This document shows, piece by piece, positions 1 through 14,719 of a stretch of 16,180 bases of DNA. A program made the translations under genes and the position numbers. The stretch's first letter is position 1. Every line of letters begins with the position of its first letter. The DNA is from a virus (Duplodnaviria > Heunggongvirae > Uroviricota > Caudoviricetes). The stretch is from IMG/VR virus record IMGVR_UViG_2529292886_000014, positions 1-16,180 of that record, one strand, 5' to 3'. The notes below the pieces were generated by a model. That model did no database searches. It was not told where the DNA came from and saw only the letters and a program-made list of their open reading frames with translations.

Positions 1-1230
1 ATGAGCAGATCACTTAACAAACTGAGCGATACACTGCTAAGGAAAATCAACGGCACACCCGCCCAAAAAACAGCCTTTCTTAATGACGGTGGAAACCTGA
101 GCGTCAGGCATTCAACCAGTGGCCTTTTAACCTGGTATTTCACTTACAGGGCCGGAACGGGAAGGGGGGCACCACCGGAACGCATTAAGCTGGGAAATTA
201 TCCTGATCTGAGCCTGAAATCAGCCAGGGAAAAAGCCGCCCAGTGTCGCGCATGGCTGGCTGAGGGGAAAAATCCACGTCATGAGATGAATTACACCGTA
301 CAGGAAGCGTTAAAGCCGGTAACGGTTGGCGATGCGCTCACCTACTGGCTTGAGTCGTACGCAAAGGAAAACCGTGTGGATTATGACCCACTGAAAAAGC
401 GGCTAAATAATCACGTAATACAGCACATTGGCCCTATGCCGCTGGATAAATGCGAGCTACGGCACTGGCTGGCCTGTTTTGATCGGGTGGCAAAGAAAGC
501 CCCTGTTTCCGCCGGGTTCCTGCTACAGACATGCAAGCAGGCGCTTAAGTTCTGCAGGAAGCGGCGCTATGCAATCAGCAACGTTCTTGATGATATGAGT
601 GTGGCGGACGTTGGGAAAAAACCGGATATAAGTGAGCGTGTCTTAAGTAACAAAGAACTTGGCGAATTATTGCAGGCACTGGACAAAAAAATATTTTCCC
701 CTTACTACGTCGCACTAATCCGCCTCCTGATTGTTTTCGGATGCCGGACAGTAGAACTGAGGTTATCGGAGAGCGGCGAGTGGGATTTTACCGAAATGCT
801 CTGGACCGTGCCGAAAGAACACAGCAAAACGAAGGTGGCAATATTCCGGCCCATACCGGAAGCAATACTGCCGTTCGTCACGCAGCTGGTGGAGCAGAAC
901 AGGCACACGGGCTTATTGCTGGGGGAAGTGAAACAGGAAACAAGCGTGTCGCAGTACGGCAGATTAGCGCACAGGAGGCTAAATCACCCTCACTGGTCAC
1001 TACATGACATCCGGCGCACCTTTACAACGATGCTGAACGATTTAGGCGTGGATCCTCACGTCGTGGAGCAGCTTACAGGCCACCAGATGCCAGGAATGCA
1101 GCGAGTTTATAATCATTCCCGTTATCTGGATGCTAAACGCAATGCGCTGGATATGTGGACGGAGTGGTTAGGGATACTGGCGGGAACACATGAAAACGTA
1201 ACCACGCTACCAGTAGCCAGAAGAAAATAA
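1..1230 (+). CDS. int: Site-specific tyrosine integrase (P4-type, N-terminal arm-binding domain)
   Basis: 409-aa ORF. N-terminus (LSDTLLRKINGTPAQKTAFLNDGGNLSV...YFTYR...IKLGNYPDLSLKSAREKA) resembles the arm-binding domain of P4-like integrases. C-terminus has HDIRRTF, LTGHQ and a Y in NHSRY, consistent with the R-H-R-Y catalytic set. Window starts exactly at its ATG. Confidence 0.9.
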   Translation: MSRSLNKLSDTLLRKINGTPAQKTAFLNDGGNLSVRHSTSGLLTWYFTYRAGTGRGAPPERIKLGNYPDLSLKSAREKAAQCRAWLAEGKNPRHEMNYTVQEALKPVTVGDALTYWLESYAKENRVDYDPLKKRLNNHVIQHIGPMPLDKCELRHWLACFDRVAKKAPVSAGFLLQTCKQALKFCRKRRYAISNVLDDMSVADVGKKPDISERVLSNKELGELLQALDKKIFSPYYVALIRLLIVFGCRTVELRLSESGEWDFTEMLWTVPKEHSKTKVAIFRPIPEAILPFVTQLVEQNRHTGLLLGEVKQETSVSQYGRLAHRRLNHPHWSLHDIRRTFTTMLNDLGVDPHVVEQLTGHQMPGMQRVYNHSRYLDAKRNALDMWTEWLGILAGTHENVTTLPVARRK

Positions 1231-1594
1231 TTTTTTTCGTGTTTTTTCAGTATGCGCATACTGGATATGCGAACAGATACAACGTGCAACAATGAGCAAC
1301 AATGTGGAACAACTACGAACAAGAGGCGAAAAAGCGTACGGATTTATAAGTGGCTGATTTTTAATGTGTTGCTGGTTTTTTATACACTAGCGAATCACTC
1401 TTTAAAGAGCGAGAAAAAAGGCATGAAACAATATTTTATGCCTTTGTATTAACATGAATTTAAAATATTTTATTCTTACTGTTTCATTTTCTGTAAATCA
1501 TACATCCTCAGTATTTGCCATTCATCACTCTAGCGGGAACAATACGACACAATAAGACACCTGATGACTCTTTAAGAAACGAAAGGGGGCAATA

Positions 1595-1783
1595 GTGTTA
1601 AGCACTGATCGGTTTATACGTGAAAAAGAATGCGAAAAACTAACCGGCCTTAGCCGTACGTGTCGCTACCGCCTGGAAAAGGCCGGACAATTCCCATCAC
1701 GTCGTAAACTTGGCGGTCGTTCCGTTGGCTGGTCTTTATCCGAGGTTCTGGCCTGGAAGGATAGCTGCAAGGCAGTTCATTAA
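1595..1783 (+). CDS. alpA: AlpA-family phage regulatory protein (excisionase-like HTH)
   Basis: 62-aa ORF with GTG start at 1595 preceded by SD AGGGGG (1584-1589). Sequence ...LTGLSRTCRYRLEKAGQFPSRRKLGGRSVGWSLSEVLAWK matches the AlpA/Xis-type HTH pattern (recalled, not searched). Position directly after int is typical of P4-like elements and PICIs. Confidence 0.8.
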   Translation: MLSTDRFIREKECEKLTGLSRTCRYRLEKAGQFPSRRKLGGRSVGWSLSEVLAWKDSCKAVH

Positions 1784-1929
1784 TCACGCTGGCGGCACGC
1801 AGCCGCCACACATCAATCATCTGAACACAGAGCTATAACCATGAAGATTGAATATACGCCAGAACGTGGGCGGGGATTCGTTCGCCCTGGTGAAACTGAA
1901 AAACAACAAAATTGGGGTTTTTCAGGCAT

Positions 1930-1957
1930 AAAAAAAGCGGCCCCGAAATGGAGCCGC
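1930..1957 (-). terminator. Rho-independent terminator for the minus-strand RHH operon
   Basis: Minus-strand RNA reads GCGGCUCC-AUUUC-GGGGCCGC (8-bp stem, one G-U wobble) followed by UUUUUUU (plus-strand A-run 1930-1936). It sits about 95 bp downstream of the minus-strand ORF ending at 2053 and before the converging alpA. Confidence 0.55.
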
Positions 1958-2052
1958 CTTTCTGAACAGATAACCCGCTGCGCCGTTTGTGTGTGTGATT
2001 CCAAACATAAGAACGGCAATGATAGCCGCTATCAGGCTGGTGGGCAATGCAA

Positions 2053-2226
2053 TCAGTCTGGTTCAGTTCGTTGCCATACCTGCAATGAGCGCGTTTCCCT
2101 GTACTCTTTAAGGAATTGCTCAAGGGCAAAAGCACATGGCGCGAATCTTTCTGATTCATGCTCTATCTTTCTGCGCCGTCTTTTCCGTGCCGGTGATAAT
2201 GTTTTGGTCAATTCTTTATCGGTCAT
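2053..2226 (-). CDS. Hypothetical small basic protein (57 aa), second gene of the RHH operon
   Basis: Minus-strand ORF MTDKELTKTLSPARKRRRRKIEHESERF... Start taken at the second ATG (2224-2226), preceded by AGGA at about 7 nt. Lies between the RHH gene and the minus-strand terminator. No recognisable family; could be non-coding. Confidence 0.3.
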   Translation of the reverse strand: MTDKELTKTLSPARKRRRRKIEHESERFAPCAFALEQFLKEYRETRSLQVWQRTEPD

Positions 2227-2283
2227 TGTGTTGTCCTGCATAGCAATGCGCCGTAATACCTTACACCACGGCGCTGATGGTGA

Positions 2284-2589
2284 TTACTCTGGTTCTTTGG
2301 TCTTGCGGCGCTGGAGTTCTTCACGTGCGACAGTGACGAGCTGCCCGATCTCCTCGGCGGCTTTGATTCCGAGTTTTTCCACCTGCGCCAGTGCATCGAG
2401 CGAAGAAACCAGGGGATTTTCTCCACTTCCTTCTGCCTGGCGCCGGGCGATCTCACCGCGTACAGCCGTAACTATAAAATTCGCTTTAGTTTCCCCTGGC
2501 TGTAGGGATGCCTCAATGCCACTCACTACTTCATGTGGAAATCTGGCATTCAGTTGCTGTGACTTATTGTTAACAGAACTCCTGGACAT
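2284..2589 (-). CDS. Arc/Mnt-like ribbon-helix-helix DNA-binding protein (putative satellite repressor)
   Basis: Start ATG at 2587-2589 (minus) preceded by SD GGAGGT with 6-nt spacing. 101-aa product MSRSSVNNKSQQLNARFPHEVVSGIEASLQPGETKANFIVTAVRGEIARRQ...; the LNARFPHEV...ANFIVTAVRGEI block parallels the Arc N-terminus (FNLRWPREV...). The track ORF (2284..2769) carries a 60-codon N-terminal extension judged spurious. Confidence 0.65.
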   Translation of the reverse strand: MSRSSVNNKSQQLNARFPHEVVSGIEASLQPGETKANFIVTAVRGEIARRQAEGSGENPLVSSLDALAQVEKLGIKAAEEIGQLVTVAREELQRRKTKEPE

Positions 2590-2632
2590 GTTTGCACCTC
2601 CCATTAATAACGGGATGCAGTGTAATACAAAA

Positions 2633-2686
2633 GTGAATACCAAAAAAGACTTGAAATGGTATTCACCTAAATGTAATGTGAATACC
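2633..2686. promoter_or_regulatory. Operator-like array of three 9-bp half-sites between divergent transcription units
   Basis: GTGAATACC at 2633-2641, its reverse complement GGTATTCAC at 2658-2666, and GTGAATACC again at 2678-2686. Located 44-97 bp upstream of the RHH start codon and about 110 bp upstream of the first plus-strand gene (2795). Confidence 0.45.
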
Positions 2687-2794
2687 ACAAGTGCTGATAC
2701 ATGCAATTCAGCAATTGAAACGACGAAGCCCCGCACTGTTGGAGCAGTAACGGGGCTTCTAACCACCAACGATAACGAGAGTATCGAGGTAGCT

Positions 2795-2998
2795 ATGAGA
2801 AATCATACCACACACCCGCAAGGGCGGGACCCGCACAACCTGAATAAATACATCTGGCGTTTTATCGCCCTGAGTACGGCACAACCGCGCGTGATTACCA
2901 TTGAGGCCAGCAGCGAACAGGAAGCACGCCAGCAATCCCCGGCTGGCTGCGTGATGGTATTCGCCGCCCGTATTCGTCAGGGGGTGTTCCATGCCTGA
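2795..2998 (+). CDS. Small protein (67 aa), possibly Icd-like cell-division inhibitor family
   Basis: ATG at 2795 with SD GAGG at 2786-2789. Product MRNHTTHPQGRDPHNLNKYIWRFIALSTAQPRV...VMVFAARIRQGVFHA. The THPQG and IWRF/FAARI motifs resemble my recollection of 'Icd-like' small proteins of P4-like prophages (unverified). Stop overlaps the next start (ATGCCTGA). Confidence 0.4.
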   Translation: MRNHTTHPQGRDPHNLNKYIWRFIALSTAQPRVITIEASSEQEARQQSPAGCVMVFAARIRQGVFHA

Positions 2999-3311
2999 CA
3001 TGACCAATTACCAGTACCTGATTAATCCGCATTTTAACTGTGAGCATGATATTGCTAAAAAGGTTTATTCCGCTGCTGATGGGGCTACTGACAATATATC
3101 AATGGCTGTTGCCTCAATTGGTAACCTGATGTGGTATGCGTCAGAAAATGAGGAATATGACGAAAAGGCCATGCGCATTGACATGGGGAATATTGGCTTG
3201 TTACTGGCAATGCTTGGGCAGTTTGATATTTCGTTACGGTGCACCATTGAAAATGCCGCAGATGCATTAAATGCCATAAAGAAAGCGAATACTGATTCAA
3301 ATCGGGGATAA
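2991..3311 (+). CDS. Hypothetical protein (106 aa)
   Basis: ORF with SD AGGGGG about 6 nt upstream; start/stop overlap with the preceding gene. No family recognised. Confidence 0.55.
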   Translation: MPDMTNYQYLINPHFNCEHDIAKKVYSAADGATDNISMAVASIGNLMWYASENEEYDEKAMRIDMGNIGLLLAMLGQFDISLRCTIENAADALNAIKKANTDSNRG

Positions 3312-3317
3312 ATAATC

Positions 3318-3617
3318 ATGAGAACATATTTATCTGGCTTGACTGCCAGCGGTTATGCACACCCTAAAATTATCCCCGGCGCTATTTATCTGGATAAGAA
3401 CGGTAACAGAGTAACGGTAAAAGAACTGATGTTTGACCGTGTGTATTTTATTCGTGATGGCTATTCATTTCATAGTTCGCTGAACGTGGAGATCTTTATT
3501 AGCAGATTCCGGCGGGAAATCCCGACTTCCAGAAATAACCATGTGTCACGTGTGGATGTGGATAAAAAACTACAGGAACTGAAAAACATGATTGCCTCGT
3601 GGAGAGAGCAGAAATGA
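3318..3617 (+). CDS. Hypothetical protein (99 aa)
   Basis: ORF starting 7 nt after the previous stop. Its stop overlaps the primase start (ATGA at 3614-3617). No family recognised. Confidence 0.55.
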   Translation: MRTYLSGLTASGYAHPKIIPGAIYLDKNGNRVTVKELMFDRVYFIRDGYSFHSSLNVEIFISRFRREIPTSRNNHVSRVDVDKKLQELKNMIASWREQK

Positions 3618-5431
3618 AAAAAGCGCCAAATTTAAAACACCAGCCACGTGACAAAATGACGGAAGTCATCATTTTTGCGGGTAGTGATGCGTGGGCACAT
3701 GCGAAGCAGTGGCAGGAACAGGACGGGCGACTGGCTGGCGATAACGTGCCACCTGTCTGGCTTGGAGAGCAACAACTTGCCGAACTGGACAACCTGCAAA
3801 TCGTACCGGACGGACGCTATCGCGTGCGTCTCTACCAGGCGGGGTTATTGCGTCCTGGGCTTGTTAATACCATCGGGCAGAAACTGGCAGCGGCAGGTGT
3901 CAGGGATGCTGATTATTATCCTGAAGGAATGCACAGCCAGAAACGGGAGAACTGGCGCGAATATCTGGAACGTGAGCGGGGAGAGCTGGCGGAAAAGAAA
4001 AAGGTAGTTGAACTGCCTGTAAAGAAAAAAGAGCGGGTAAAAGACGATAACGCTTCATCACTGGCGCTTAACCAGATGGGAGCAAGTCAACGCGGCGAAG
4101 TTCTCCTGGCACATTATGGCGGGGAACTGGCGATTCATGCCGACTCTGACACTGTTCACCATTACAACGGCGTTATATGGGAGCCGGTTCAGGATAAAGA
4201 ATTACAGCGAGCTATGGCACAGATTTTCATTGATGCGGAGATCAGCTATTCGCAGAACGCCATTAAATCGGCGGTCGATACCATGAAGTTAAGTTTGCCT
4301 GTAATGGGGAATACAGCCCGTAACCTGATTGGATTCAGTAACGGGGTATTTGATACCAGAACAGGTAATTTTCGGGAGCATAACAAAAACGACTGGTTGT
4401 TAATTGCCAGTGAATTACCTTTCAGCCCACCAGCAGAGGGGGAAACGCTGGCAACACATGCGCCGAATTTCTGGAAGTGGTTACGCCGTTCGGTGGCTGA
4501 GAATGACCGCAAGGCGGATCGCGTACTGGCTGCATTATTCATGGTGCTGGCGAACCGGTACGACTGGCAGTTATTCATTGAGGTAACAGGTCCAGGGGGA
4601 AGTGGTAAAAGCGTGATGGCGGAGATTTGCACCATGCTGGCGGGTAAGGCCAACACAGTATCGGCAAGCATGAAGGCGCTGGAAGATGCAAGGGAACGCG
4701 CGTTAGTGGTTGGCTTTTCGCTGATTATCATGCCGGATATGACCCGCTACGCTGGTGATGGGGCAGGGATTAAGGCTATTACAGGCGGTGACAAGGTGGC
4801 AATTGACCCGAAACACAAAGCCCCCTACTCAACGCGTATTCCGGCAGTAGTGCTGGCGGTTAACAATAACGCCATGTCATTCAGTGACCGCAGCGGGGGG
4901 ATCTCACGTCGTCGGGTGATATTCAATTTTTCGGAAGTTGTACCGGAGAACGAACGCGATCCAATGCTGGCGGAAAAAATAGAAGGTGAGCTGGCGGTAG
5001 TGATTCGCCATCTGCTTACACGGTTTGCTGACCAGGACGAAGCCAGACGCCTGTTATATGAGCAGCAGAAATCTGAAGAAGCACTGGCGATAAAGCGAGA
5101 GGGGGATTCGCTGGTGGACTTCTGCGGCTATCTCATGGCGTCGGTAATGTGTGATGGCCTGTTAGTGGGTAATGCTGAAATTGTACCATTCAGCCCACGC
5201 AGGTATCTCTATCATGCCTATCTGGCTTATATGCGGGCACATGGGTTTGGTAAACCTGTAACACTGACGCGCTTCGGTAAAGATATGCCGGGGGCAATGG
5301 CGGAATATGGCAGGGAGTATATGAAACGGAAAACGAAGCACGGTTTGCGTTCAAACGTGACACTGACGGAGGAATCAGAAGACTGGATGCCATCATGTGT
5401 ATCGGTCACTAATGACGATAGCAAAAATTAA
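3614..5431 (+). CDS. P4 alpha-like primase-helicase (replication initiator)
   Basis: About 605 aa from the ATG at 3614 (SD GGAGAGAG at 3601-3608); the track ORF begins at an upstream GTG (3599). Walker A motif GPGGSGKS in the C-terminal half, consistent with the P4-family primase C-terminal NTPase domain (recalled). Immediately followed by TGTTCACC iterons, the sequence bound by P4 alpha. Confidence 0.85.
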   Translation: MKKAPNLKHQPRDKMTEVIIFAGSDAWAHAKQWQEQDGRLAGDNVPPVWLGEQQLAELDNLQIVPDGRYRVRLYQAGLLRPGLVNTIGQKLAAAGVRDADYYPEGMHSQKRENWREYLERERGELAEKKKVVELPVKKKERVKDDNASSLALNQMGASQRGEVLLAHYGGELAIHADSDTVHHYNGVIWEPVQDKELQRAMAQIFIDAEISYSQNAIKSAVDTMKLSLPVMGNTARNLIGFSNGVFDTRTGNFREHNKNDWLLIASELPFSPPAEGETLATHAPNFWKWLRRSVAENDRKADRVLAALFMVLANRYDWQLFIEVTGPGGSGKSVMAEICTMLAGKANTVSASMKALEDARERALVVGFSLIIMPDMTRYAGDGAGIKAITGGDKVAIDPKHKAPYSTRIPAVVLAVNNNAMSFSDRSGGISRRRVIFNFSEVVPENERDPMLAEKIEGELAVVIRHLLTRFADQDEARRLLYEQQKSEEALAIKREGDSLVDFCGYLMASVMCDGLLVGNAEIVPFSPRRYLYHAYLAYMRAHGFGKPVTLTRFGKDMPGAMAEYGREYMKRKTKHGLRSNVTLTEESEDWMPSCVSVTNDDSKN

Positions 5432-5442
5432 ACTTATGGAAT

Positions 5443-5667
5443 AACTGTTCACCACTGTTCACCCTGTCATAAATATCTTTTATATCAGTATATTATAGGG
5501 TGAACAGTTATTTATGAACTGTTCACCAAACTATTCACTGTTCACCTTTTTGATTGTTTATTGAGCTTCAAGGGTGAACAGTGGTGAACAGTTGGTGAAT
5601 AGTTTTTGTGAAACTGTTCACCCATTAACATTATGAATTAAAAGATAAAATATCAAAAGGTGAACAG
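5443..5667. repeat. Iteron array, putative origin of replication (P4 ori/crr-like)
   Basis: About 10 copies of the core TGTTCACC / GGTGAACA (often extended to AACTGTTCACC) in both orientations within 225 bp of AT-rich DNA: 5443-5453, 5454-5463, 5499-5509, 5517-5527, 5536-5546, 5573-5582, 5583-5593, 5594-5604 (degenerate), 5612-5622, 5659-5667. Confidence 0.75.
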
Positions 5668-5718
5668 GTGAAGGGTTAAAACGCAAAAATTTTAATTTAC
5701 TGCTGTGAGATAAAGCCT

Positions 5719-5964
5719 ATGACAGCGAAGCACACAAAAAAATCACAATCGCACGCCCTTGATTTGACGGAACACTGGTTAAGGGTGTCGATAAAAATCA
5801 TCGACCGCAACGCCGGGGAAGGATATGCGAAAGCACATCCCGAACTAATAAGCGCATTCATGACCACGGCGGCGGCAAACTTTGCCACGCTGACGGAACG
5901 GGAGATTGCCGAAGCGGAACAGGTAACAACCATCAACGTTAAAACCGGAGAGGTGGAATCATGA
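5719..5964 (+). CDS. Hypothetical protein (81 aa)
   Basis: ORF between the iteron origin and ssb. Its stop overlaps the ssb start (ATGA), suggesting translational coupling. No family recognised. Confidence 0.5.
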   Translation: MTAKHTKKSQSHALDLTEHWLRVSIKIIDRNAGEGYAKAHPELISAFMTTAAANFATLTEREIAEAEQVTTINVKTGEVES

Positions 5965-6371
5965 CAGCACAGATAGCCGCTTACGGGCGGCTGGTGGACG
6001 ACCCGCAGGTAAAACAGACCAGCAAGGGCACACCGATGACGCTGGCGCGTATGGCGGTCCCCCCTCCGTGCAGCCAGGCAGATGACGGAACGGCGACGAT
6101 GTGGTTATCCGTCCTGGCATTTGGCAGACAGGCCGAAGCACTGGCAAGGCACCGCAAGGGTGAACTCCTGAGCGTGGCGGGTAACATGCAGATCAGCCAG
6201 TGGACCGGACAGAACGGGGAAACACTGCAGGGTTATCAGGTTATTGCAGACAGCGTAATCAGTGCCCGCGCGGCACGTCCTGGCGGGAACAGACGCAAAA
6301 CCACAGGCACACAGGGTAATCAGCCACCAGCGGGAGGCGATGACCCTTACGGTGACGGTATTCCGTTCTGA
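5961..6371 (+). CDS. ssb: Single-stranded DNA-binding protein (SSB-like)
   Basis: SD GGAGG at 5948-5952. OB-fold-like pattern G.L..DP.V...G...W..V..FG..AE.....RKG...G...W....G that parallels E. coli SSB, a Gly/Pro/Gln-rich linker, and the C-terminal tail ...DDPYGDGIPF (compare SSB ...DDDIPF). Confidence 0.75.
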   Translation: MTAQIAAYGRLVDDPQVKQTSKGTPMTLARMAVPPPCSQADDGTATMWLSVLAFGRQAEALARHRKGELLSVAGNMQISQWTGQNGETLQGYQVIADSVISARAARPGGNRRKTTGTQGNQPPAGGDDPYGDGIPF

Positions 6372-6381
6372 GGGGGTGACG

Positions 6382-6654
6382 ATGGTACATGACCGCATAG
6401 CGGAAGAACTCGAGGCGAAAGGCTTTTACCGGAGGGCGGCGGCGCGATGGGGTGAAGTCATGCAGCTGGTGGAGACAGACAAGGAACGGCATCACATCAC
6501 GATGCGACGGCTGGAATGTTGCAGGAAGGCACAGAGGCCACCGGAGCCACCGGATAATTACGGAGACCTGAAAAAGGCAGTCGATCGCACTTATGCCGAA
6601 ATGGGGATAGATGGTGCTGGTGATGAAATATGGCGCAATTACCAGGACAGCTAA
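6382..6654 (+). CDS. PerC-family-like small transcriptional regulator (90 aa)
   Basis: ATG at 6382 preceded by SD GAGGGGGTG. The N-terminal motif AEELEAKGFYRRAAARWGEVM resembles the PerC/Pch family signature as I recall it (unverified). The track ORF 6262..6654 overlaps ssb and is judged N-terminally over-extended. Confidence 0.5.
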   Translation: MVHDRIAEELEAKGFYRRAAARWGEVMQLVETDKERHHITMRRLECCRKAQRPPEPPDNYGDLKKAVDRTYAEMGIDGAGDEIWRNYQDS

Positions 6655-6660
6655 TCACAC

Positions 6661-6684
6661 AGCCGGAGAAATCCGGCTTTTTTT
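6661..6684 (+). terminator. Rho-independent terminator
   Basis: AGCCGGA-GAAA-TCCGGCT followed by TTTTTTT, directly after the stop at 6654. Confidence 0.7.
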
Positions 6685-6779
6685 GCACCAGTTGAAACGG
6701 TATGGCGCATTACCGGGTTTTCGTCACGGTCTGGCATAGTTACTATCTGAAACAAACAGACACAACAGAGGAAAAAACA

Positions 6780-7004
6780 ATGCCGATGAAATTTGATGAG
6801 ATATTAAAACAGCGTGATAAATACCATGCTGACAACATGGAGACGATGAGCATCAATGATTACCGCGCATTCCTGGAGACGGGCGCACTGATTGAAAAGG
6901 ATCAGCATGGTTTTGTTAGATGTGCTCTATCCGGTGAAATGCTGGCGGTAAATCCTGAACAGATAGATGCAATGATAGAATTTCTGAAAGGGATCAGGGA
7001 CTGA
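6780..7004 (+). CDS. Hypothetical small protein (74 aa) in a terminator-bracketed cassette
   Basis: ATG at 6780 preceded by SD GAGGAAAA. The track ORF begins at an upstream ATG (6702) with no SD. Flanked by the two near-identical terminators. Confidence 0.5.
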   Translation: MPMKFDEILKQRDKYHADNMETMSINDYRAFLETGALIEKDQHGFVRCALSGEMLAVNPEQIDAMIEFLKGIRD

Positions 7005-7013
7005 GCACGCATA

Positions 7014-7036
7014 CAGCCGGAGCAATCCGGCTTTTT
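7014..7036 (+). terminator. Rho-independent terminator (near-duplicate of 6661-6684)
   Basis: AGCCGGA-GCAA-TCCGGCT followed by TTTTTGTCATTTTTTG. Same stem as the upstream terminator, different loop. Confidence 0.7.
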
Positions 7037-7056
7037 GTCATTTTTTGTAAATTATT

Positions 7057-7083
7057 TGTTCGTGGTTGTTCCACGTTGTTCAC
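7057..7083. promoter_or_regulatory. Dyad element TTGTT-CGTGG-TTGTT-CCACG-TTGTT upstream of the head operon
   Basis: CGTGG (7061-7065) and CCACG (7071-7075) are reverse complements, separated and flanked by TTGTT. A half-copy TTGTTCCACGTTGTT recurs at 14581-14595. Confidence 0.35.
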
Positions 7084-7263
7084 TGACAGGATCGGCATAT
7101 TTTACCCGAACTGAATCATGATTATTCTCGCCCGTGGTGCCAGGACGCTGGGGCCATTTTTCCCGCCTGTTAATGTGTTCACCAATATTCATTCATTACC
7201 AGGCGGGAAAGCAATCGGTGCGTTTACTGATTTCCTTATGAAAAAGCGTTGAGTTTTTGCCGC

Positions 7264-7300: not shown

Positions 7301-8458
7301 ATGCCGAGAATAATCGAATTACGCCAGCAGAAAACCGCCATTAAAAATCAGATGCGCGACATGCTGGAGAACGCGGAAAAAGAAAACCGCAGCCTTAACG
7401 ATGCAGAGGGCGCAAAATTTGACGAATTACGCGCTAAAGCTGAATCCCTCGATAAAGACATTTCCCGCCTTGAAGCCATTGCAGACGAAGAGCGCAGCAA
7501 GCCAGGTAAAAGCAGCCAGACCACTGACCCGGCAGAACTCCGCAACTACATCCTGACAGGTGAAACCCGCGCATTAAGTACAGGTGTCCCCGCTGATGGT
7601 GGTTATACCGTTATCCCTGAACTGAACACCGAAATCATGCGAATGCTGGCGGATGAGTCCACCATGCGCCGCATCTGTACCGTGAAAAAAATCAGCAGCA
7701 ACGAGTTTAAGCAGCTTGTTTCCGCTGGCGGTGCGGTCGTTAACCACGGTGAAGAGGGTAAGGCACGCGAACAGACCAGCACCCCGCAGATTAACGAGGT
7801 GAGCATTAAGCTGTATCCGGTCTATGCGTACCCGCGCACCACACAGGAAATCGTGGATTTTTCCGATGTGGACATCCTTTCATGGCTGACGGGCGAGATT
7901 GGCGACACCTTCACGGAAACCGAAGAAAGTGATCTGGTTGTGGGCGACGGTGACAAAAAAGCAAAAGGTTTTTTATCCGTACCCCGTGCAGAGAAGAACG
8001 ACAAAGAACGTGATTTCGGAACGTTGCAGGTTATCAAGCCCGTTGATGATCTTGCCTGGACATCTGCGGACCCGCTGATCGATCTGAAATTTGCATTACG
8101 TAAAAAATACCGCAAGAACGCGGTATGGGTGGTTAACTCCACGACGGCGGCAAAACTCCAGAAGGTGAAGAATGCGAACGGGGATTATATATGGCGTGAC
8201 CGTTTACAGGCGGGTGATCCTGACACATTGCTGGGCCTTCCGGTCGAATATCTGGAGTTTATGCCGGATAACGTTATTGCCCTGGGCGACTTTAAACGCG
8301 GTTACTACATCGTTGATCACGAAACAGGTGTTCGCACCAGACCGGACAACCTGACAGAACCAGGATTCATCAAAATTTTCACGCAAAAATATTTAGGCGG
8401 TGGCGTGGTGGATTCGAACGCGATCAAGATTCTGGAACTGCCACAGGACGACGATTAA
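7301..8458 (+). CDS. Major capsid protein, HK97 fold, with N-terminal coiled-coil delta/scaffold-like domain
   Basis: 385 aa. The N-terminal ~100 aa are charged and helical (RQQKTAIKNQMRDMLENAEKENRSLNDAEGAKFDELRAKAESLDKDISRLEAIADEE). The C-terminal part LLGLPVEYLEFMPDNVIALGDFKRGYYIVDHETGVRTRPDNLTEPGFIKIF fits the HK97-family capsid pattern (recalled). Confidence 0.9.
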   Translation: MPRIIELRQQKTAIKNQMRDMLENAEKENRSLNDAEGAKFDELRAKAESLDKDISRLEAIADEERSKPGKSSQTTDPAELRNYILTGETRALSTGVPADGGYTVIPELNTEIMRMLADESTMRRICTVKKISSNEFKQLVSAGGAVVNHGEEGKAREQTSTPQINEVSIKLYPVYAYPRTTQEIVDFSDVDILSWLTGEIGDTFTETEESDLVVGDGDKKAKGFLSVPRAEKNDKERDFGTLQVIKPVDDLAWTSADPLIDLKFALRKKYRKNAVWVVNSTTAAKLQKVKNANGDYIWRDRLQAGDPDTLLGLPVEYLEFMPDNVIALGDFKRGYYIVDHETGVRTRPDNLTEPGFIKIFTQKYLGGGVVDSNAIKILELPQDDD

Positions 8459-8468
8459 CAGCATACAG

Positions 8469-8497
8469 AAGGGGCTAAAAAGCCCCTTTAGTGTTTT
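8469..8497 (+). terminator. Intrinsic terminator/attenuator downstream of the capsid gene
   Basis: AAGGGGCT-AAAA-AGCCCCTT followed by the T-rich tail TAGTGTTTTATG, between the capsid stop (8458) and the protease start (8514). Confidence 0.55.
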
Positions 8498-8513
8498 ATG
8501 GGTGAAAAAAATT

Positions 8514-9071
8514 ATGAAGAGTATGGAAATCCGGTCATCGGAAATCACCACCAGCGCCAGCAACACGCTTACAGGCTACGTTGTTCGCTGGGATAACCTT
8601 TCGGAACTGTTATGGGGGGAGTTTTACGAAAAATTCCAGCGGGGGGCGTTTACTGAGTGGCTTGCGGCGGGTAATGACGTTCGCGGCCTGTATGAGCATG
8701 ACCACAGCATGTTACTGGGGCGCACCCGTTCCGGCACGCTGAAACTGGAAGAGGACGACACAGGGTTACGCTTTGAACTTACCCCACCGGATACCAGCAC
8801 AGGGCGTGACGTTATCGAACTGGTTAAACGTGGTGATATATCCGGCATGAGCTTTGGCTTTCGTTCCCGTAAGGATGTATGGGATACCACAACAGATCCA
8901 TGCGTGCGCACCGTGCTGGTGGCGGAACTGTACGAAATTACCGTTACATCCGTACCGGCTTACCCCGATTCCGGCGTGGAGCTGGCCCGCCGTTCCCTGT
9001 ATGAGCAGCACCCCGAAAAAATGCCGCGTGCGGATAATCGCCGCTGGTGGGCGGATTTAGCGGGGGTGTGA
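8514..9071 (+). CDS. Prohead maturation protease, HK97 family
   Basis: 185 aa from the ATG at 8514 (the track ORF is extended to 8400 across the terminator). Motifs TGYVVRWDN, GLYEHD and GMSFGF match the HK97 prohead protease family (recalled). Confidence 0.85.
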   Translation: MKSMEIRSSEITTSASNTLTGYVVRWDNLSELLWGEFYEKFQRGAFTEWLAAGNDVRGLYEHDHSMLLGRTRSGTLKLEEDDTGLRFELTPPDTSTGRDVIELVKRGDISGMSFGFRSRKDVWDTTTDPCVRTVLVAELYEITVTSVPAYPDSGVELARRSLYEQHPEKMPRADNRRWWADLAGV

Positions 9072-9072
9072 T

Positions 9073-10284
9073 ATGTGGCCTTTCAGAAGAAAAAAAGAGC
9101 AGCGCAGCATGACGCTTGATGAATTTATGGCGCTGGCTGGCACATCGAACACGGGGGCGGGTGAGTACGTATCATCGGGGACAGCGGAATCACTCCCCGC
9201 CGTCATGAACGCCGTCACGGTCATCTCTGAGGCGGTGGCTACTATGCCATGCTACCTGTACCTGGTACGCAATGAGAAGGGGAAGGAGGCCCGCGAGTGG
9301 CTTGATTCTCATCCGGTCGATCATATCCTCAACGAGCGCCCGAACGCATGGCAAACCCCCTACCAGTTTAAGCGAATGATGATCCGCCACTGCCTGTTAA
9401 ACGGTAATGCTTACGCGGTGATTCAGTGGGGGCGTGATGGTTTTCCGGCGGCTTTACATCCTTACCCGCCGCAGTCGGTGAACGTGGAGCAGACAGGAGA
9501 ACACAACTGGCGCTATTGCATCACTGACGCCTACACCGGAAACACCCGCAACTATTTACCGTGGGAAGTACTTCACCTTCGTTACTCCACGGATGACGGC
9601 TTTATGGGGCGCTCACCTGTAACCATCTGCCGCGAATCGCTGGGGCTTGGGCTGGCCCAACAACGCCACGGCGCGAGCGTGATGCGTGATGGCATGATGG
9701 CGGCAGGGGTTATCACGTCAGGCGAATGGCTGGACGGCGTGAAAGGCAAACAGGCATTAGCCGCACTGGAACGCTATAAAGGGGCCAAAAACGCCGGAAA
9801 AACGCCCATCCTTGAAGGGGGCATGAGTTACCAGCAGCTGGGCATGAGTAACCAGGACGCCGAATGGCTGGCCTCCCGTCGCTTCACCATTGAAGACATC
9901 GCCCGAATGTTCAACGTCTCGCCGATTTTTCTGCAGGAATACAGCAACAGCACCTACAGCAATTTCAGCGAGGCAAGCCGCGCATTTCTCACCATGACGA
10001 TGCGCCCGTGGCTGGCGAACTTTGAGCAGCAGATAAAAAACGCCTTGCTGGTGGTCTCGCCTGTACCTGGTATCCGGTATCAGGTGGAGTTTGACAGCGC
10101 GGACCTGTTACGGGCCACACCTGGCGAACGCTTTGCCACCTATGAGCGAGGCATCAAATCCGGTGTTATGTGCCCGAACGAAGCCCGCGAACGAGAAGGG
10201 TTGTCTCCGCGTGATGGTGGTGATGAGTTCAGCCAGGCATGGAAACAGGAAGTAAAAATCAGCGAGGGAGAAAAACCGGAATGA
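9073..10284 (+). CDS. Portal protein, HK97 family
   Basis: 403 aa. Motifs NERPNAWQTPYQF, LLNGNAYAVI, GRSPV, EDIARMFNVSPIFL and NEAREREGLSP...GGD follow the HK97-family portal pattern (recalled). Starts 2 nt after the protease stop. Confidence 0.85.
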   Translation: MWPFRRKKEQRSMTLDEFMALAGTSNTGAGEYVSSGTAESLPAVMNAVTVISEAVATMPCYLYLVRNEKGKEAREWLDSHPVDHILNERPNAWQTPYQFKRMMIRHCLLNGNAYAVIQWGRDGFPAALHPYPPQSVNVEQTGEHNWRYCITDAYTGNTRNYLPWEVLHLRYSTDDGFMGRSPVTICRESLGLGLAQQRHGASVMRDGMMAAGVITSGEWLDGVKGKQALAALERYKGAKNAGKTPILEGGMSYQQLGMSNQDAEWLASRRFTIEDIARMFNVSPIFLQEYSNSTYSNFSEASRAFLTMTMRPWLANFEQQIKNALLVVSPVPGIRYQVEFDSADLLRATPGERFATYERGIKSGVMCPNEAREREGLSPRDGGDEFSQAWKQEVKISEGEKPE

Positions 10285-10619
10285 ACATAGGGCGACTGCG
10301 TGACAGGGTAACGATTCAGACCCTGAAACAGACCAGAGCCATGACGGGCGAAATACTCGAAACGTGGGAGGACGGTCACACACTCTGGGCAAGCGTGAAC
10401 ATGGTCAGCAGCAAGGAGGCCATTTCATCGGGTGCAGAGCTGGCGATTGGTACCGTAAGGATCTGGATACGGTACCGGAAGGACATCAACGCCACCAGCC
10501 GGATAAAGGTCAATACGGGGCCGCTGGCGGGGCGTGTACTGAATATCATCGGGCAGCCGCTGCCGGATGCCGCCAGGACACGCCTTGAAATTCTTTGTCG
10601 TGAGGGCGCGGAAAAATGA
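10281..10619 (+). CDS. Head-closure / head-tail joining protein (HK97 gp7-like)
   Basis: 112 aa from the ATG at 10281 (SD GAGGGAG; ATGA overlap with the portal stop). The N-terminus MNIGRLRDRVTIQ matches the head-tail joining family motif (recalled). Confidence 0.75.
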   Translation: MNIGRLRDRVTIQTLKQTRAMTGEILETWEDGHTLWASVNMVSSKEAISSGAELAIGTVRIWIRYRKDINATSRIKVNTGPLAGRVLNIIGQPLPDAARTRLEILCREGAEK

Positions 10620-10912
10620 CAGAAGAACTTATCACCCTAGAAGAAGTGAAACTCCATTGCCGCATCGATGGCGACGAGGAAGACCAGTTAATCAGCGGAT
10701 ACATTGCCGCATCGCTTGAGGCGTGCCAGATACACATAGGCAGGCGCTTTGATGACGGGCTGGAGTTCACGCCAGCCATAAAGATTGGCTGCATGATGTT
10801 TATCGCTCACCTGTATGAGAATCGCCAGATTGTCGCGGATAACGCAAAAACACACGTACCCATGACGATTGGCGCACTCTGGACGGCTTACCGTGATGTG
10901 GGGGTGTACTGA
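10616..10912 (+). CDS. Head-tail connector protein (gp6-like)
   Basis: 98 aa. N-terminus MTEELITLEEVKLHCRIDGDEEDQLISGYIAASLEACQIHIGRRF matches the gp6-like connector signature (recalled). Confidence 0.8.
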   Translation: MTEELITLEEVKLHCRIDGDEEDQLISGYIAASLEACQIHIGRRFDDGLEFTPAIKIGCMMFIAHLYENRQIVADNAKTHVPMTIGALWTAYRDVGVY

Positions 10913-11352
10913 TGCCGTGGCAACCATTAAGACGATGTACAGAACCAGGCTGCAACAGGCGCGTGAAGTCCGGCAAGTGTGAGGAGCACAGACGCAGCGC
11001 ACGCCAGCAGCAGGACAGCCGGAGAGGCAGCAGCAGGGAGCGAGGGTATACGAGGCAGTGGGAGAAATACCGCGCCATGTATCTGAGTAAAAACCCGTTA
11101 TGTGCGCATTGCCTGGAAAAAGGAATATACACGCCCGCCGTGGTGGTGGATCACATTATCCCAATCGATGGCGGTAATGATGTTCTCTTCTGGCCTGAGT
11201 GGAATCATCAGCCATTGTGCCAGGCGTGTCATAACCAGAAAACGAAATGGCTTGATCCGTCCACAAAAAACAAGCGTGCTGCGGGTGGATTCCGTGAGGA
11301 GGAAGAACGGGCCGCTAACCGCAATAACTGGATGTATGGCGCTGATGAATGA
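10912..11352 (+). CDS. HNH endonuclease (terminase-associated)
   Basis: 146 aa. CxxC pairs (CTEPGC, CAHC) and the HNH core VVDHIIPIDGGNDV...NHQPLCQACHNQKT. Start overlaps the previous stop (TGATG). Sits directly upstream of terS/terL. Confidence 0.9.
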   Translation: MPWQPLRRCTEPGCNRRVKSGKCEEHRRSARQQQDSRRGSSRERGYTRQWEKYRAMYLSKNPLCAHCLEKGIYTPAVVVDHIIPIDGGNDVLFWPEWNHQPLCQACHNQKTKWLDPSTKNKRAAGGFREEEERAANRNNWMYGADE

Positions 11353-11518
11353 GCGGGAACAAAACCGCCTTATCCGTGGACTTATAAGGCAGCGTGACGC
11401 ATGGAAGGCACAGGAAACAGGGCATAAAGATAAAGCATCAGGACGCGCAGAACGCATCACAGCGACGCGATTAAACGACCGTGACCGCGAGGTTATGGAA
11501 TGTTTCCGCAATCGCTGA
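11345..11518 (+). CDS. Hypothetical small protein (57 aa)
   Basis: In-frame ATG at 11345 within track ORF 11102..11518, overlapping the HNH stop; product MNEREQNRLIRGLIRQRDAWKAQETGHKDKASGRAERITATRLNDRDREVMECFRNR. No clear SD and no family recognised. Confidence 0.3.
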   Translation: MNEREQNRLIRGLIRQRDAWKAQETGHKDKASGRAERITATRLNDRDREVMECFRNR

Positions 11519-11640
11519 TGAGGCAGCCGGACGGGGTGGGGGGAGTTTTCAGGACGAACCCGACCCCGCCCAGAACCGAACGCCTCCTCAAATTTTTATG
11601 CACGGGAATTTTTTGAAAAATAATCTGACGAAAAATAAGC

Positions 11641-11997
11641 ATGGCAAGACCACCGAAAGCCCCCGCCTACCTGGATGATATCGCCGTGAAGCAGTGGCGG
11701 GAAAAATCGCGGCAGCTTGCGGAGCGGGGAGACCTGACCCCCGCCGACTGGAGCAATCTGGAACTGTATTGCGTCAACTACTCCATTTACCGGAAAGCCG
11801 TTGCAGACCTTGCGGCGCGCGGGTTCAGCATTGTTAACAGTCAGGGCGGCGAGAGCAGAAACCCCGCATTAAGCGCAAAATCCGACGCTGAAAGGGTGAT
11901 GATAAAAATGGCCTCCTTGCTTGGTTTTGACCCGATAAGCCGCCGTAAAAATCCACCGGAAACAGAAGAAGAGGACGAGCTTGACCGCCTGGAATAA
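11641..11997 (+). CDS. terS: Terminase small subunit (P27-family-like)
   Basis: 118 aa. Pattern MARPPKAP.YLDD.A...W......L...G.LT.AD...LE.YC..Y..YRKA...L...G....N..G....NPA......A...M.K.A..LGF.P..R matches the P27-type small terminase (recalled). Confidence 0.9.
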   Translation: MARPPKAPAYLDDIAVKQWREKSRQLAERGDLTPADWSNLELYCVNYSIYRKAVADLAARGFSIVNSQGGESRNPALSAKSDAERVMIKMASLLGFDPISRRKNPPETEEEDELDRLE

Positions 11998-13642
11998 GTA
12001 CGCAGAAGACGTAAAAACGGGCAAAATTCCGGCCTGTAAACGGCTGAAACAGGCCGTTAAACGGTACTTTTCGGACCTTGAAAGCCCCCTTTACACGTTC
12101 GATCGTGAGGTTGTGGAGCGGTTTATTGCCTTTTCCAGGGTGTGCCCGCACGTAAAAGGGCCGATGCGTGGCAGACCCATTGAGCTGGAGCCGTGGCAGC
12201 AGTTCGCCTTTGCGTGCATCCTCGGCTTTAAGGTTAAGGCCACCGGACGGCGCAAATACACGAGCGCCTTTATCGAAGTGCCGCGCAAAAATGCGAAATC
12301 CACGACCGCCGCGATTCTGGCTAACTGGTTTCTGATTATGGAGAACGGTCAGCAGGATATCTACACCGCAGCGGTGAGCCGTGACCAGGCGCGGATCGTC
12401 TTTGATGATGCGCGTCAGATGTGCCTTTTATCCCGACCGTTACGCAGGCGGGTGAATATTCAGGCGCATAAGGTGATACACCCGAAAAGCAACAGCCTGT
12501 TAAAGCCGCTGACAGGAAAAGCGGCAACCATCGAGGGAACAAACCCCAGCCTTTCCATCGTGGACGAATACCACTTGCACCCCGATAACGGCGTTTATTC
12601 CGCGCTTGAGCTGGGGATGGGCGCACGTCCCGAAGGGCTGTTATTTGCCATTACCACATCAGGCAGCAACGTCGTTTCAGCCTGTAAGCAGCACTATGAT
12701 TATTGCTGTCAGATCCTGGACGGCGAAGAGGTCAACGATTCAATTTTTGTACTGATTTACGAACTGGACGACGAAAACGAGGTTGATGATCCGGCGATGT
12801 GGATAAAGGCTAACCCTAACATCGATGTTTCCGTGGATCGTGAAAAACTGGCCTCAACCATCCAGAAAGCGCGGGGTATTCCGTCGCAGTGGGTGGAGAT
12901 GATGACAAAGCGATTTAATATCTGGTGTCAGGGGACTACCCCGTGGATGGGTAATGGTGCATGGGCTGAGTGTGCCGGAACGTTCACGGAGGAAGATTTA
13001 CACGGTCAGGAGTGTTACGCGGGGCTGGACTTATCATCAACCAGCGATATTTCCAGCGTGTGCTATGCCTTTCCGGTCGGTAAAAATATCATGCTGGTTT
13101 CCCGTCATTATCTGCCGGAGTTCCAGCTACAGAACCCCGCCAATAAAAACCGCGCTGTCTATCGCCAGTGGGCTAAAGCGGGCTGGATACGCACAACGCC
13201 AGGTGACTGCATTGATTACGACCGGATCAGAGATGACATCATGCAGGACGCGGAGAAATTTAATATCAGGCTGGTGGGCTTTGATACGTGGAACGCCACG
13301 CATCTCAGGACGCAATTACAGGGGGCTGGTTTTGAGGTGGAGCCGTTCCCGCAAACCTACCTCAGATTCAGTCCGGCGGCGAAATCGTTCGAAGTTTTTG
13401 TTAACCGCAGGGTGATTGTGCATCGTGGCGATCCGGTGTTGTCCTGGTCGATGAGTAACGTCGTGATGCAGAGTGACGCGAATGCCAATATCAAGCCGAA
13501 CAAGAAAAAATCACCGAACAAGATAGACCCGGGCGTGGCGGCACTGATGGCGTTTGGTACATTCCAGGCAGAGCATGAGGATTTTGCTTTTGATATAAGC
13601 GACAGCCACCGCCAGAAACTGGAAGAATTTAGCGGGGTGTAA
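11981..13642 (+). CDS. terL: Terminase large subunit
   Basis: 553 aa. The track start is a TTG at 11981 preceded by GAGGA and overlapping the terS end; the true start is uncertain. Walker-A-like VPRKNAKST, an acidic ATPase motif SIVDEYH, and a C-terminal nuclease-like region fit large terminases. Confidence 0.9.
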   Translation: MTAWNKYAEDVKTGKIPACKRLKQAVKRYFSDLESPLYTFDREVVERFIAFSRVCPHVKGPMRGRPIELEPWQQFAFACILGFKVKATGRRKYTSAFIEVPRKNAKSTTAAILANWFLIMENGQQDIYTAAVSRDQARIVFDDARQMCLLSRPLRRRVNIQAHKVIHPKSNSLLKPLTGKAATIEGTNPSLSIVDEYHLHPDNGVYSALELGMGARPEGLLFAITTSGSNVVSACKQHYDYCCQILDGEEVNDSIFVLIYELDDENEVDDPAMWIKANPNIDVSVDREKLASTIQKARGIPSQWVEMMTKRFNIWCQGTTPWMGNGAWAECAGTFTEEDLHGQECYAGLDLSSTSDISSVCYAFPVGKNIMLVSRHYLPEFQLQNPANKNRAVYRQWAKAGWIRTTPGDCIDYDRIRDDIMQDAEKFNIRLVGFDTWNATHLRTQLQGAGFEVEPFPQTYLRFSPAAKSFEVFVNRRVIVHRGDPVLSWSMSNVVMQSDANANIKPNKKKSPNKIDPGVAALMAFGTFQAEHEDFAFDISDSHRQKLEEFSGV

Positions 13643-13655
13643 TGAGGTCAGCAGC

Positions 13656-13937
13656 ATGACAGAAGCCGAAATACTGCGATTAATCCGCCGCGTCTCTGGA
13701 ATCAGCCAGCAGGCTGACGAACAGACCACGCAGCCGGACAGCGTGACAGCCGAAAATTATGCGCGTGTTGTTGCTGAGGTGATGCGCCGTGATGGTATCC
13801 AGCTTAATGATGTGGATATGCGCGACATACGGATCCGCGTTCTGGAAATGCTGGCCTATCGTCGCCGCGTGGAGATGTATCGGGAGAAGGAAAAAATAAC
13901 GTACCACTGGAAGAAGCCGGAGCGCTTGCGGCGGTAA
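13656..13937 (+). CDS. Hypothetical protein (93 aa), last gene of the element
   Basis: ATG at 13656 with SD GAGGT about 7 nt upstream, 14 nt after the terL stop. Charged and helical; no family recognised. Confidence 0.5.
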   Translation: MTEAEILRLIRRVSGISQQADEQTTQPDSVTAENYARVVAEVMRRDGIQLNDVDMRDIRIRVLEMLAYRRRVEMYREKEKITYHWKKPERLRR

Positions 13938-14230
13938 CTGGTTGATATTCCCGACGGCCCAAAAATGGGTGGCTACATCCCTCGCTTCTGAGGACTGTTA
14001 ACAAGCTGCCTGAAAGACAGTCACAAACTACGAAATTTTCGCAGTTTAATTAATGGTCAGCTTAATCGCTAACCCGCTGATATTTTCGGAAACCTCAATT
14101 TGAGGAAGTCGGCGCGGTAACTCGCTGAACTTAAAGCAAAGCTCAAAATTGAGCTGGCTGAATAATCATTATGATTACGCAGATGATTAAGGAATGACCG
14201 AAGGCGGAAATTCGCCTGTGGTTGATGGGG

Positions 14231-14250
14231 GAGTTGCAGATCTGCAACTC
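14231..14250. repeat. 20-bp perfect palindrome GAGTTGCAGATCTGCAACTC
   Basis: Read directly; the reverse complement is identical. Embedded in an ORF-poor stretch with several other dyads. Confidence 0.8.
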
Positions 14251-14719
14251 GACCATGAAACTACGGAAACTACCCGTAGTTTGGGTAGTAAGAGTAACAC
14301 CCAGATTTTGGGGCTTACTCGTGATACCCAAATTTGGGGTATCGGTGGCAACCATAACGACTTTCGTTACGGTTGATGCTTTTACCCCATTGGGGGAAAG
14401 GTATTACGATAATCATAACACCTACCGAACAGGTAAAACCCACCAGCCTGATTAACAGTTAACCGGAAAAAAAACCAGGTGGCCCCGTTATGGGGATCCC
14501 CATATCGACATTAACGCCCCTCATGAATTGGTGTGCTTCCCCCTGGAAAGATTACCCGCCTGTATATTTCTTGTGTCTATTTGTTCCACGTTGTTTCATA
14601 CAGTGCACCGAACGGTGTAGTTAATGGTGTAGTTAATTTGCTGTTTTTAGCACTTTTTGTAGTGTGAGTTTTTTAATTAAATTAATGGGTTACTTTGCTG
14701 TGGTGATAAAAGGACATAT

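Follow-up and report, generated by a model that had tools for sequence, protein, structure and literature searches.

The 16,180-nt stretch of DNA analyzed here (the window; IMG/VR virus record IMGVR_UViG_2529292886_000014, positions 1 to 16,180) very probably carries, at positions 1-14719, an intact capsid-forming phage-inducible chromosomal island (cf-PICI) inserted in an Escherichia coli chromosome, which its sequence marks as a close variant of the prototype EcCIEDL933 and which sits in the 75-nt spacer between roxA and phoQ. The element is of an already known kind, namely a close allele of the published, genetically and structurally characterized EcCIEDL933. An earlier reading of the same DNA, made without database searches (the sequence-only reading), had proposed a satellite that builds its own capsids and not a degraded prophage, and this proposal is supported by colinearity with EcCIEDL933, by host genes located outside both ends, and by undisrupted head genes.

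The whole element (2-14692) is colinear with the EcCIEDL933 copy of an O157:H7 strain, with 94% nucleotide identity. This copy, the tqsA-inserted element of E. coli O157:H7 PV15-279 (locus L002), was used as the reference for per-gene identities; its capsid protein is 100% identical to PDB 9GYI, which according to the depositors' preprint is the EcCIEDL933 capsid (bioRxiv 10.1101/2025.02.11.637232). In the per-gene comparison, the head and packaging proteins of the window element are 88-100% identical to those of the reference copy, have equal lengths, and contain no stops. The gene order from int to orf93 and the iteron origin are the same in both elements, whereas the N-terminus of a ribbon-helix-helix (RHH) regulator together with its upstream region (2300-2790), six capsid residues, and the integrase (89%) differ.

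EcCIEDL933 makes its own small capsids, packages itself exclusively, and needs only helper tails; helper capsid mutants still transfer it, whereas helper tail mutants abolish its transfer (bioRxiv 10.1101/2022.09.08.507074). Mutations in its head and packaging genes abolish transfer and leave helper growth unaffected; loss of the hypothetical gene 1792 is the exception, as it reduced transfer severely and did not abolish it; induction requires alpA, and tail-less capsids can acquire tails later from other lysates (bioRxiv 10.1101/2022.09.08.507074). The capsid is a T=4 shell of 47.5 nm without covalent crosslinks (bioRxiv 10.1101/2025.02.11.637232). Given protein identities of 88-100%, helper- and AlpA-dependent induction, formation of own small capsids, exclusive self-packaging, and dependence on tails only would also be expected of the window copy.

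Gene content and class membership

In the SatelliteFinder model, a cf-PICI has 11 core components and may not contain tail or holin genes (PMC10085698). All 11 components are present in the element and the forbidden ones are absent, as judged by Pfam, PHROG, and NCBIfam matches and not by SatelliteFinder's own profiles, and a Type A call is therefore expected. The components comprise an integrase, a regulator (of the AlpA, MerR, or Stl type in the model, here AlpA), a primase-replicase, capsid, protease, portal, head-tail connectors, HNH, TerS, and TerL, which are encoded, together with one further small gene of the head module, as follows.

1-1230, plus strand: int, tyrosine integrase of the P4-family type with an arm-binding domain (PF13356 Arm-DNA-bind_3, PF00589 Phage_integrase)
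1595-1783, plus strand: alpA, master activator/excisionase-type regulator (PF05930, E 5.4e-17; PHROG 2790, 'excisionase and transcriptional regulator')
3614-5431, plus strand: Rep, P4-alpha-like SF3 helicase with an origin-binding domain (D5_N, DUF5906, Pox_D5, PHROG 864; 97.7% identical to the reference copy; homologous to P4 alpha only in the helicase and origin-binding part)
7301-8458, plus strand: major capsid protein, HK97 fold with an N-terminal delta domain (PF05065, E 2e-61)
8514-9071, plus strand: prohead serine protease S78 (PF04586, E 5.8e-48; 95.8% identical)
9073-10284, plus strand: portal (PF04860, E 3e-90; 99.3% identical)
10281-10619, plus strand: head closure protein Hc1 (PF05521, PHROG 25; 95.5% identical)
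10616-10912, plus strand: gp6-type head-tail adaptor Ad1 (PF05135, PHROG 40; 99.0% identical)
10912-11352, plus strand: HNH endonuclease, packaging cofactor (PF01844; 87.7% identical)
11336-11518, plus strand: orf60 (PHROG 3173; 93% identical)
11641-11997, plus strand: TerS, P27 family (PF05119; 100% identical)
11981-13642, plus strand: TerL (PF03354, PF20441; 98.6% identical)

Each gene class that the sequence-only reading had listed, including int, alpA, and a full HK97-type head and packaging set, was found present and intact with Pfam, PHROGs, and NCBIfam, and its view of the element as a cf-PICI taking only tails from helper phages agrees with both the SatelliteFinder components and the published behavior of EcCIEDL933. 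Assigned genes account for 82.5% of the element. None of the remaining open reading frames (ORFs) of the element matched a tail, tape measure, baseplate, holin, endolysin, or CI/Cro protein in Pfam, PHROGs, NCBIfam, or PADLOC, as that reading had stated, but a divergent RHH regulator gene is present and the element is not regulator-free. PADLOC found no defense genes among ten small or unassigned ORFs. A tRNA scan of the window found no tRNA genes, and the element is therefore not a tRNA-site island.

Integration site and integrase

The element is a discrete unit of about 14.9 kb between two GGACATATTT cores, with its own attachment sites and located outside any prophage, and the corresponding empty site is known from K-12, where phoQ and roxA lie 75 nt apart on the same strand with roxA downstream (L003 2242-2316). 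The features of the right junction are the following.

14581-14637, plus strand: attR arm, with one TTGTTCCACGTTGT box (14581-14594) and two tandem GGTGTAGTTAAT repeats (14614-14637)
14712-14721: attR core GGACATATTT, 10 bp, from comparison with attL and the empty K-12 site
14720-16180, minus strand: phoQ, host gene at the right end

The insertion next to phoQ that had been read from the sequence is confirmed by the attR core, which shares 2 nt with the phoQ stop codon. Alignment of the empty site with both junctions gives GGGCATATTT as the K-12 core, as compared with GGACATATTT in the element. With the int ATG at position 1, the window does not contain the attL core, which is located about 180 nt farther upstream (L004 9820-9829). 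Three public contigs (L004, L005, and L006) match window 1-11230 with 100% identity, and in them roxA, pepT, potA, and potB are located directly upstream of int; the search for tail, lysis, or repressor genes contiguous with int, which could have made the window the arm of a complete prophage, found these host genes instead. The tandem GGTGTAGTTAAT pair also occurs in attL, 45 nt upstream of int, and these repeats are candidate Int arm-type sites. A literature search for a phoQ/roxA attachment site in PICI papers found nothing, the att-site tables in these papers being images.

The integrase shares 95.8% of its amino acids with the JNEC-KY177 enzyme, which uses the same site, and 89.2% with the EcCIEDL933-type enzyme. 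EcCIEDL933 occupies tqsA, with the core ATAACAGCA and the arm repeats GGTGTAGTCAC, whereas the window element occupies the roxA-phoQ spacer with GGACATATTT and GGTGTAGTTAAT, respectively. Of the 44 integrase substitutions that separate the two types, 21 are located in residues 1-84 (arm-binding) and 16 in residues 119-200 (core-binding), with only 7 in the catalytic domain, and the substitutions in the arm- and core-binding domains match the differing arm repeats and cores (window 1-600 and 14614-14721; tqsA type, L002 5830-6000 and 20600-20680).

With the insertion, which directly adjoins the phoQ stop codon, 14.9 kb come to lie between phoQ and roxA, so that read-through from phoPQ into roxA, if it occurs, would be interrupted. 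A lambdoid prophage end is located about 5 kb upstream of the satellite, at potB/potC, beyond potB-potA-pepT-roxA (L004 1-5000, L006 1-456, L007 1-11715), with four intact host genes between this prophage end and the element. In L004 the neighboring prophage end carries NleG effector genes and an insertion sequence; in strain 00-3076 it shows full tail genes.

Head and packaging module

The capsid protein of the window element is identical to PDB 9GYI in 379 of 385 residues (98.4%). The six substitutions (window to 9GYI) are A117T, V146T, A155T, and VDD248-250SES, the last group being located at the end of the 227-248 connector loop. Residues D257, K290, D295, E319, and R345, whose mutation abolished or reduced transfer of EcCIEDL933 (bioRxiv 10.1101/2025.02.11.637232), are all retained. 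An A7 run at 8497-8516, which is A6 in EcCIEDL933-type copies, puts the protease start chosen by PGAP out of frame in the window; ATG 8514, in frame in both the window and the reference copy, is probably the true start, so that the protease is intact. No head gene is disrupted and all are full length.

The description of the genes as intact and translationally coupled also agrees with our data, since no stop or frameshift was found in the head and packaging genes and many starts and stops overlap (2991/2998, 3614/3617, 5961/5964, 10281/10284, 10616/10619, 10912, 11336/11352, and 11981/11997). These overlaps between neighboring genes amount to 1-17 nt, which fits translational coupling. By gene order from the capsid gene 1786, orf60 would be the counterpart of EcCIEDL933 gene 1792.

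The module resembles that of phage HK97 in its HK97-fold capsid with a delta domain, S78 protease, portal, gp6-type adaptor, head closure protein, and HNH-dependent TerS/TerL cos packaging. Unlike HK97, the window element comprises 14.9 kb without tail, lysis, or immunity genes, its genes from capsid through HNH precede terS-terL, and the shells differ, being T=7 in HK97 and T=4 without covalent crosslinks in EcCIEDL933. One spacer is a candidate for the position of cos.

11519-11640: candidate cos region, G-rich spacer of 122 nt between orf60 and terS

The linear record of vB_KppS-Ant (L008, LR881103.1, 'Escherichia phage'), a 16.5-kb 'induced prophage' entry and the only sizeable match in the phage database, ends at the equivalent of window position ~11556 and restarts 22 nt before terS. 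These termini weakly support a cos in the orf60-terS spacer, which by analogy would occupy an HK97-like position, downstream of HNH and directly upstream of terS.

Two terminator-like hairpins were observed around the capsid gene, one directly after it (8468-8492; GGGGCT-AAAA-AGCCCC followed by a T run) and one before the promoter region of the capsid operon (7016-7040; CAGCCGGAGCAATCCGGCTTTTT). They may set the ratios of capsid to minor proteins and insulate the operon.

Replication module

The replication genes follow an Icd-like gene (see below) and include, in addition to rep, several conserved small genes and a candidate origin.

2991-3617, plus strand: conserved PICI genes orf106 (2991-3311; PHROG 15327) and a gene encoding a DUF4222 protein (3318-3617; PF13973)
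5443-5677: candidate replication origin, iterons in an AT-rich spacer
5719-5964, plus strand: orf81
5961-6371, plus strand: single-stranded DNA-binding protein SSB (Pfam SSB; 85% identical to the prototype)
6382-6654, plus strand: PerC-family activator (Pfam PerC)
6780-7004, plus strand: orf74

PHROGs 1231 and 1957 were matched in the orf81-SSB-PerC-orf74 stretch (5719-7004). Residues 113-595 of Rep are 48% identical to residues 290-771 of P4 alpha, which comprise its helicase and origin-binding region, whereas residues 1-112 (window 3614-3950; PHROG 2850) resemble neither the primase domain of P4 alpha nor any Pfam family. The sequence-only reading had called this protein a P4-type primase; a P4-type replication initiator with P4-type iterons is indeed encoded, but the N-terminal primase domain of P4 has no counterpart, and, on the basis of these alignments, the 'DNA primase' annotation of this PICI Rep family is unsupported for the N-terminal part.

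The iteron GGTGAACAG occurs 10 times, in both orientations, within 5445-5667, directly after rep. Across the window it has 14 matches compared with 3.6 expected, a number reached by none of 200 shuffled sequences. Its complement, CTGTTCACC, contains the octamer TGTTCACC; P4 has 11 exact copies of this octamer, which its GenBank record labels the 'ori type 1 repeat' of ori and crr.

Regulatory genes and 14-mer boxes

AlpA is 96.8% identical to the EcCIEDL933-type AlpA. Between alpA and the replication genes, two genes are encoded on the opposite strand.

2053-2241, minus strand: small ORF of 62 aa, downstream of the RHH gene (PHROG 21027, E 3e-16; 98% identical in L001 and L002)
2284-2589, minus strand: RHH (YlcI/YnfO-type) DNA-binding protein, candidate regulator (full-length PHROG 6522, E 1.9e-45; GGAGG Shine-Dalgarno sequence before the ATG)
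2795-2998, plus strand: Icd-like small protein, first gene of the replication operon (NF033153, PHROG 6196; 94% identical to the reference copy)

The RHH gene, whose homolog in the reference copy is named YlcI/YnfO by PGAP, and the icd-rep operon are divergently transcribed. In comparison with EcCIEDL933, region 2300-2790 is exchanged, with flanks more than 95% identical: the C-terminal half of the RHH protein is identical to that of EcCIEDL933, whereas its N-terminal, DNA-reading part and the divergent promoter/operator region differ strongly, which suggests that the swapped module confers a different regulatory specificity.

An ORF of 385 aa (1841-2998, plus strand) was considered as a new accessory gene and rejected, being probably an annotation artifact apart from its last 67 codons. 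Its homologs, with open frames of 255-604 aa, are widely annotated as 'Icd-like'. We rejected it because its middle part is antisense to the two PHROG-supported minus-strand genes (2053-2241 and 2284-2589), because its third codon positions coincide with those of the minus-strand genes, so that dN/dS cannot separate the frames (0.28 vs 0.36), because a family match (Icd-like) is confined to its last 67-90 aa, and because another gene caller, on identical DNA, calls a minus-strand gene and a short icd instead.

The 14-mer TTGTTCCACGTTGT has 9 matches in the window compared with 1.65 expected, as many as in none of 200 shuffled sequences, and 7 of the 9 are located in three regulatory regions. 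One box is found in each att arm (14581-14594, plus strand; attL at L004 9922-9935), and the others of note form two tandem arrays.

1279-1322, minus strand: four tandem TTGTTCCACGTTGT copies, 10 bp apart, in the int-alpA spacer
7056-7079, plus strand: two tandem TTGTTCCACGTTGT-type boxes after a terminator-like hairpin, about 220 nt upstream of the capsid gene

EcCIEDL933 retains the 14-mer despite its different Int arm repeats. We infer that the boxes are candidate sites for AlpA in an Xis/activator role, and that the pair at 7056-7079 is a candidate activator site of the packaging operon. Scans for promoter and terminator consensus sequences in the window gave no more sites than in shuffled sequence.

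Right end: orf93 and the hairpin array

The right end comprises a conserved last gene followed by 780 nt of non-coding DNA.

13656-13937, plus strand: orf93, conserved last gene of E. coli PICIs and cf-PICIs (PHROG 1561, E 8e-56; 90% identical to the prototype)
14069-14510: non-coding array of about 10 short consecutive hairpins/palindromes in three modular blocks

orf93 is the last gene in classical PICIs as well, and the hairpin region is the same in EcCIEDL933. RNA folding of the array gave z-scores of -7.4 for the plus strand and -9.3 for the minus strand. The blocks occur in varying combinations in 1498 E. coli genomes, and in five of six further loci inspected they come after an orf93-like gene that ends a classical PICI or a cf-PICI, whereas in the sixth, L011, they follow a capsid gene; one additional locus with hairpin blocks is a degenerate remnant. 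Compensatory changes preserve individual hairpins, or different hairpins take their place; 94-97% of cells are paired and 5-7 pairs per block doubly changed in a small sample of closely related sequences. A search of genome contigs for loci related to orf93 gave two loci only, too few for covariation analysis. Rfam showed no family at its gathering threshold when the whole window was searched at E<=0.1; the only match, sub-threshold manA (21.6 vs 55.2 bits), was treated as chance.

The array was also considered as a classical PICI cos, which was ruled out, as matches to lambda-type cosN are no more frequent than expected by chance. We propose, tentatively and as less likely than not, that the array of about 440 nt is an undescribed functional element of Enterobacterial PICIs, that is, a structured RNA or a DNA signal for transfer, insulation, or helper sensing, and, in parallel, that the TTGTTCCACGTTGT boxes could be an AlpA operator coupling excision to activation of the late operon.

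Alternative explanations

Had the window carried the degraded right arm of a complete HK97-like prophage with its tail and lysis genes lost, phage-derived head and packaging genes and a lambdoid prophage end only about 5 kb away, at potB/potC, would be readily explained. This explanation is largely refuted and very improbable, as the element is bounded by an attL and an attR of its own, the empty site being a clean 75-nt spacer, four intact host genes intervene before the neighboring prophage, the genes are intact with lengths as in the functional satellite, int, alpA, and rep are of the PICI type, and the same architecture recurs at other att sites. Nor were tail, lysis, and CI/Cro modules of a temperate prophage found inside the att-bounded unit, with host genes directly outside both ends. 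Gene content likewise refutes two kinds of satellites that exploit helper capsids, to each of which we assign a negligible probability. A P4-like satellite that remodels helper capsids would share with the element a P4-type (arm-type tyrosine) integrase (25%), an AlpA/Vis homolog (45%), an alpha-like Rep (48%), and identical TGTTCACC iterons, and int, alpA, and alpha were indeed the only P4 genes matched when all window proteins were compared with P4 by tblastn; P4, however, has sid, psu, delta, epsilon, and a primase domain, none of these four hallmark genes having a homolog in the window in that search, and lacks the capsid, portal, protease, HNH, and terminase genes found here. Classical Gram-negative PICIs carry no phage structural genes and depend for packaging on the helper terminase, which acts at a lambda-like cos (Fillol-Salom 2018). 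An E. coli PICI of this EcCICFT073 type, using helper terminase and helper capsids, would have in common with the window element the left half int-alpA-icd-DUF4222-rep-ssb-perC and the right end of orf93 and hairpins, but a full head and terminase set is present, in which portal, adaptor, connector (here the head closure protein), and TerL are exclusion markers for classical PICIs in SatelliteFinder (PMC10085698), and a search for lambda-type cosN with up to two mismatches found none inside the element, matches being no more frequent than expected by chance.

Several points weigh against the view of the window element as an intact, mobilizable cf-PICI, and they bear mainly on its function. Its mobilization behavior is predicted from sequence identity to the prototype; the position of cos and the AlpA boxes are inferences; and the primase function implied by annotation is unsupported, the P4-type primase domain being absent. 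HNH (87.7%), SSB (85%), orf93 (90%), and the RHH regulator (72%) are the divergent proteins, and region 2300-2790 is swapped, so that inducibility and helper range could differ from those of the prototype. An intact-looking cf-PICI might accordingly be functionally dead, or not mobilizable in its host, through regulatory changes or for want of a compatible helper tail, a possibility with which the altered regulatory module and RHH N-terminus, the 85-88% identity of HNH and SSB, and the failure of all 17 resident EDL933 prophages to induce the prototype (bioRxiv 10.1101/2022.09.08.507074) are consistent. We consider it unlikely, as all ORFs are open, the differences resemble exchange of modules among family members and not decay, the exact int allele is present in many assemblies (107 index blocks), and the adaptor and head closure protein are 99% and 95.5% identical, respectively, to proteins shown to dock HK106 tails. 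An intact cf-PICI closely related to EcCIEDL933 is therefore the explanation we retain.

Proposed life cycle

For this cf-PICI, the cycle would begin with a helper phage switching on alpA, as shown for EcCIEDL933 and as 97% AlpA identity suggests here. AlpA and Int would then excise the element, and AlpA would activate the replication and packaging operons, possibly through the candidate TTGTTCCACGTTGT sites. Homology and the identical iteron suggest that Rep would fire the adjacent TGTTCACC iteron origin, aided by the element's own SSB. The HK97-fold head, built from the capsid protein, the S78 protease removing the delta domain, and the portal, is a T=4 shell of about 47 nm in the prototype and would here hold about 15 kb. 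HNH, TerS, and TerL would cut and package only element DNA, an exclusivity shown for the prototype, from a cos probably located at 11519-11640. Finally, the adaptor and head closure protein would complete tail-less heads, helper tails (HK106-type for the prototype) would join them, and helper lysis would release the particles.

Distribution of related elements

The roxA-attL-int junction was found in 599 of 5426 complete E. coli genomes (11%), at least some of these insertions being cf-PICIs with another replication module, and at least 80% of the mosaic of the window was found in 64 of the 5426. The roxA-phoQ cf-PICIs of JNEC-KY177 and 00-3076 share the att site and the head and packaging module, with integrases 96-97% identical in amino acids; they differ from the window element in that 00-3076 carries a RepA-type helicase instead of the alpha-like Rep, and JNEC-KY177 lacks window 2315-2956 and 13975-14218. 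The vB_KppS-Ant record is itself cf-PICI-like, comprising int, alpA, an alpha-like Rep, and the head and packaging set; its sole tail annotation is a 765-aa ORF after terL, labeled 'tape measure'.

Significance

This analysis indicates that a sequence-only reading is able to recognize a capsid-forming satellite correctly. The element itself adds little, as the family, the prototype, its capsid structure, and its tail-borrowing transfer have all been published and similar elements are common in Enterobacteriaceae. Its value is modest and threefold: the roxA-phoQ spacer is documented as a heavily used insertion site; the integrase provides a natural example of retargeting through changes in the arm- and core-binding domains that are matched by changes in the DNA sites; and attention is drawn to the hairpin array and the 14-mer boxes as conserved non-coding features.

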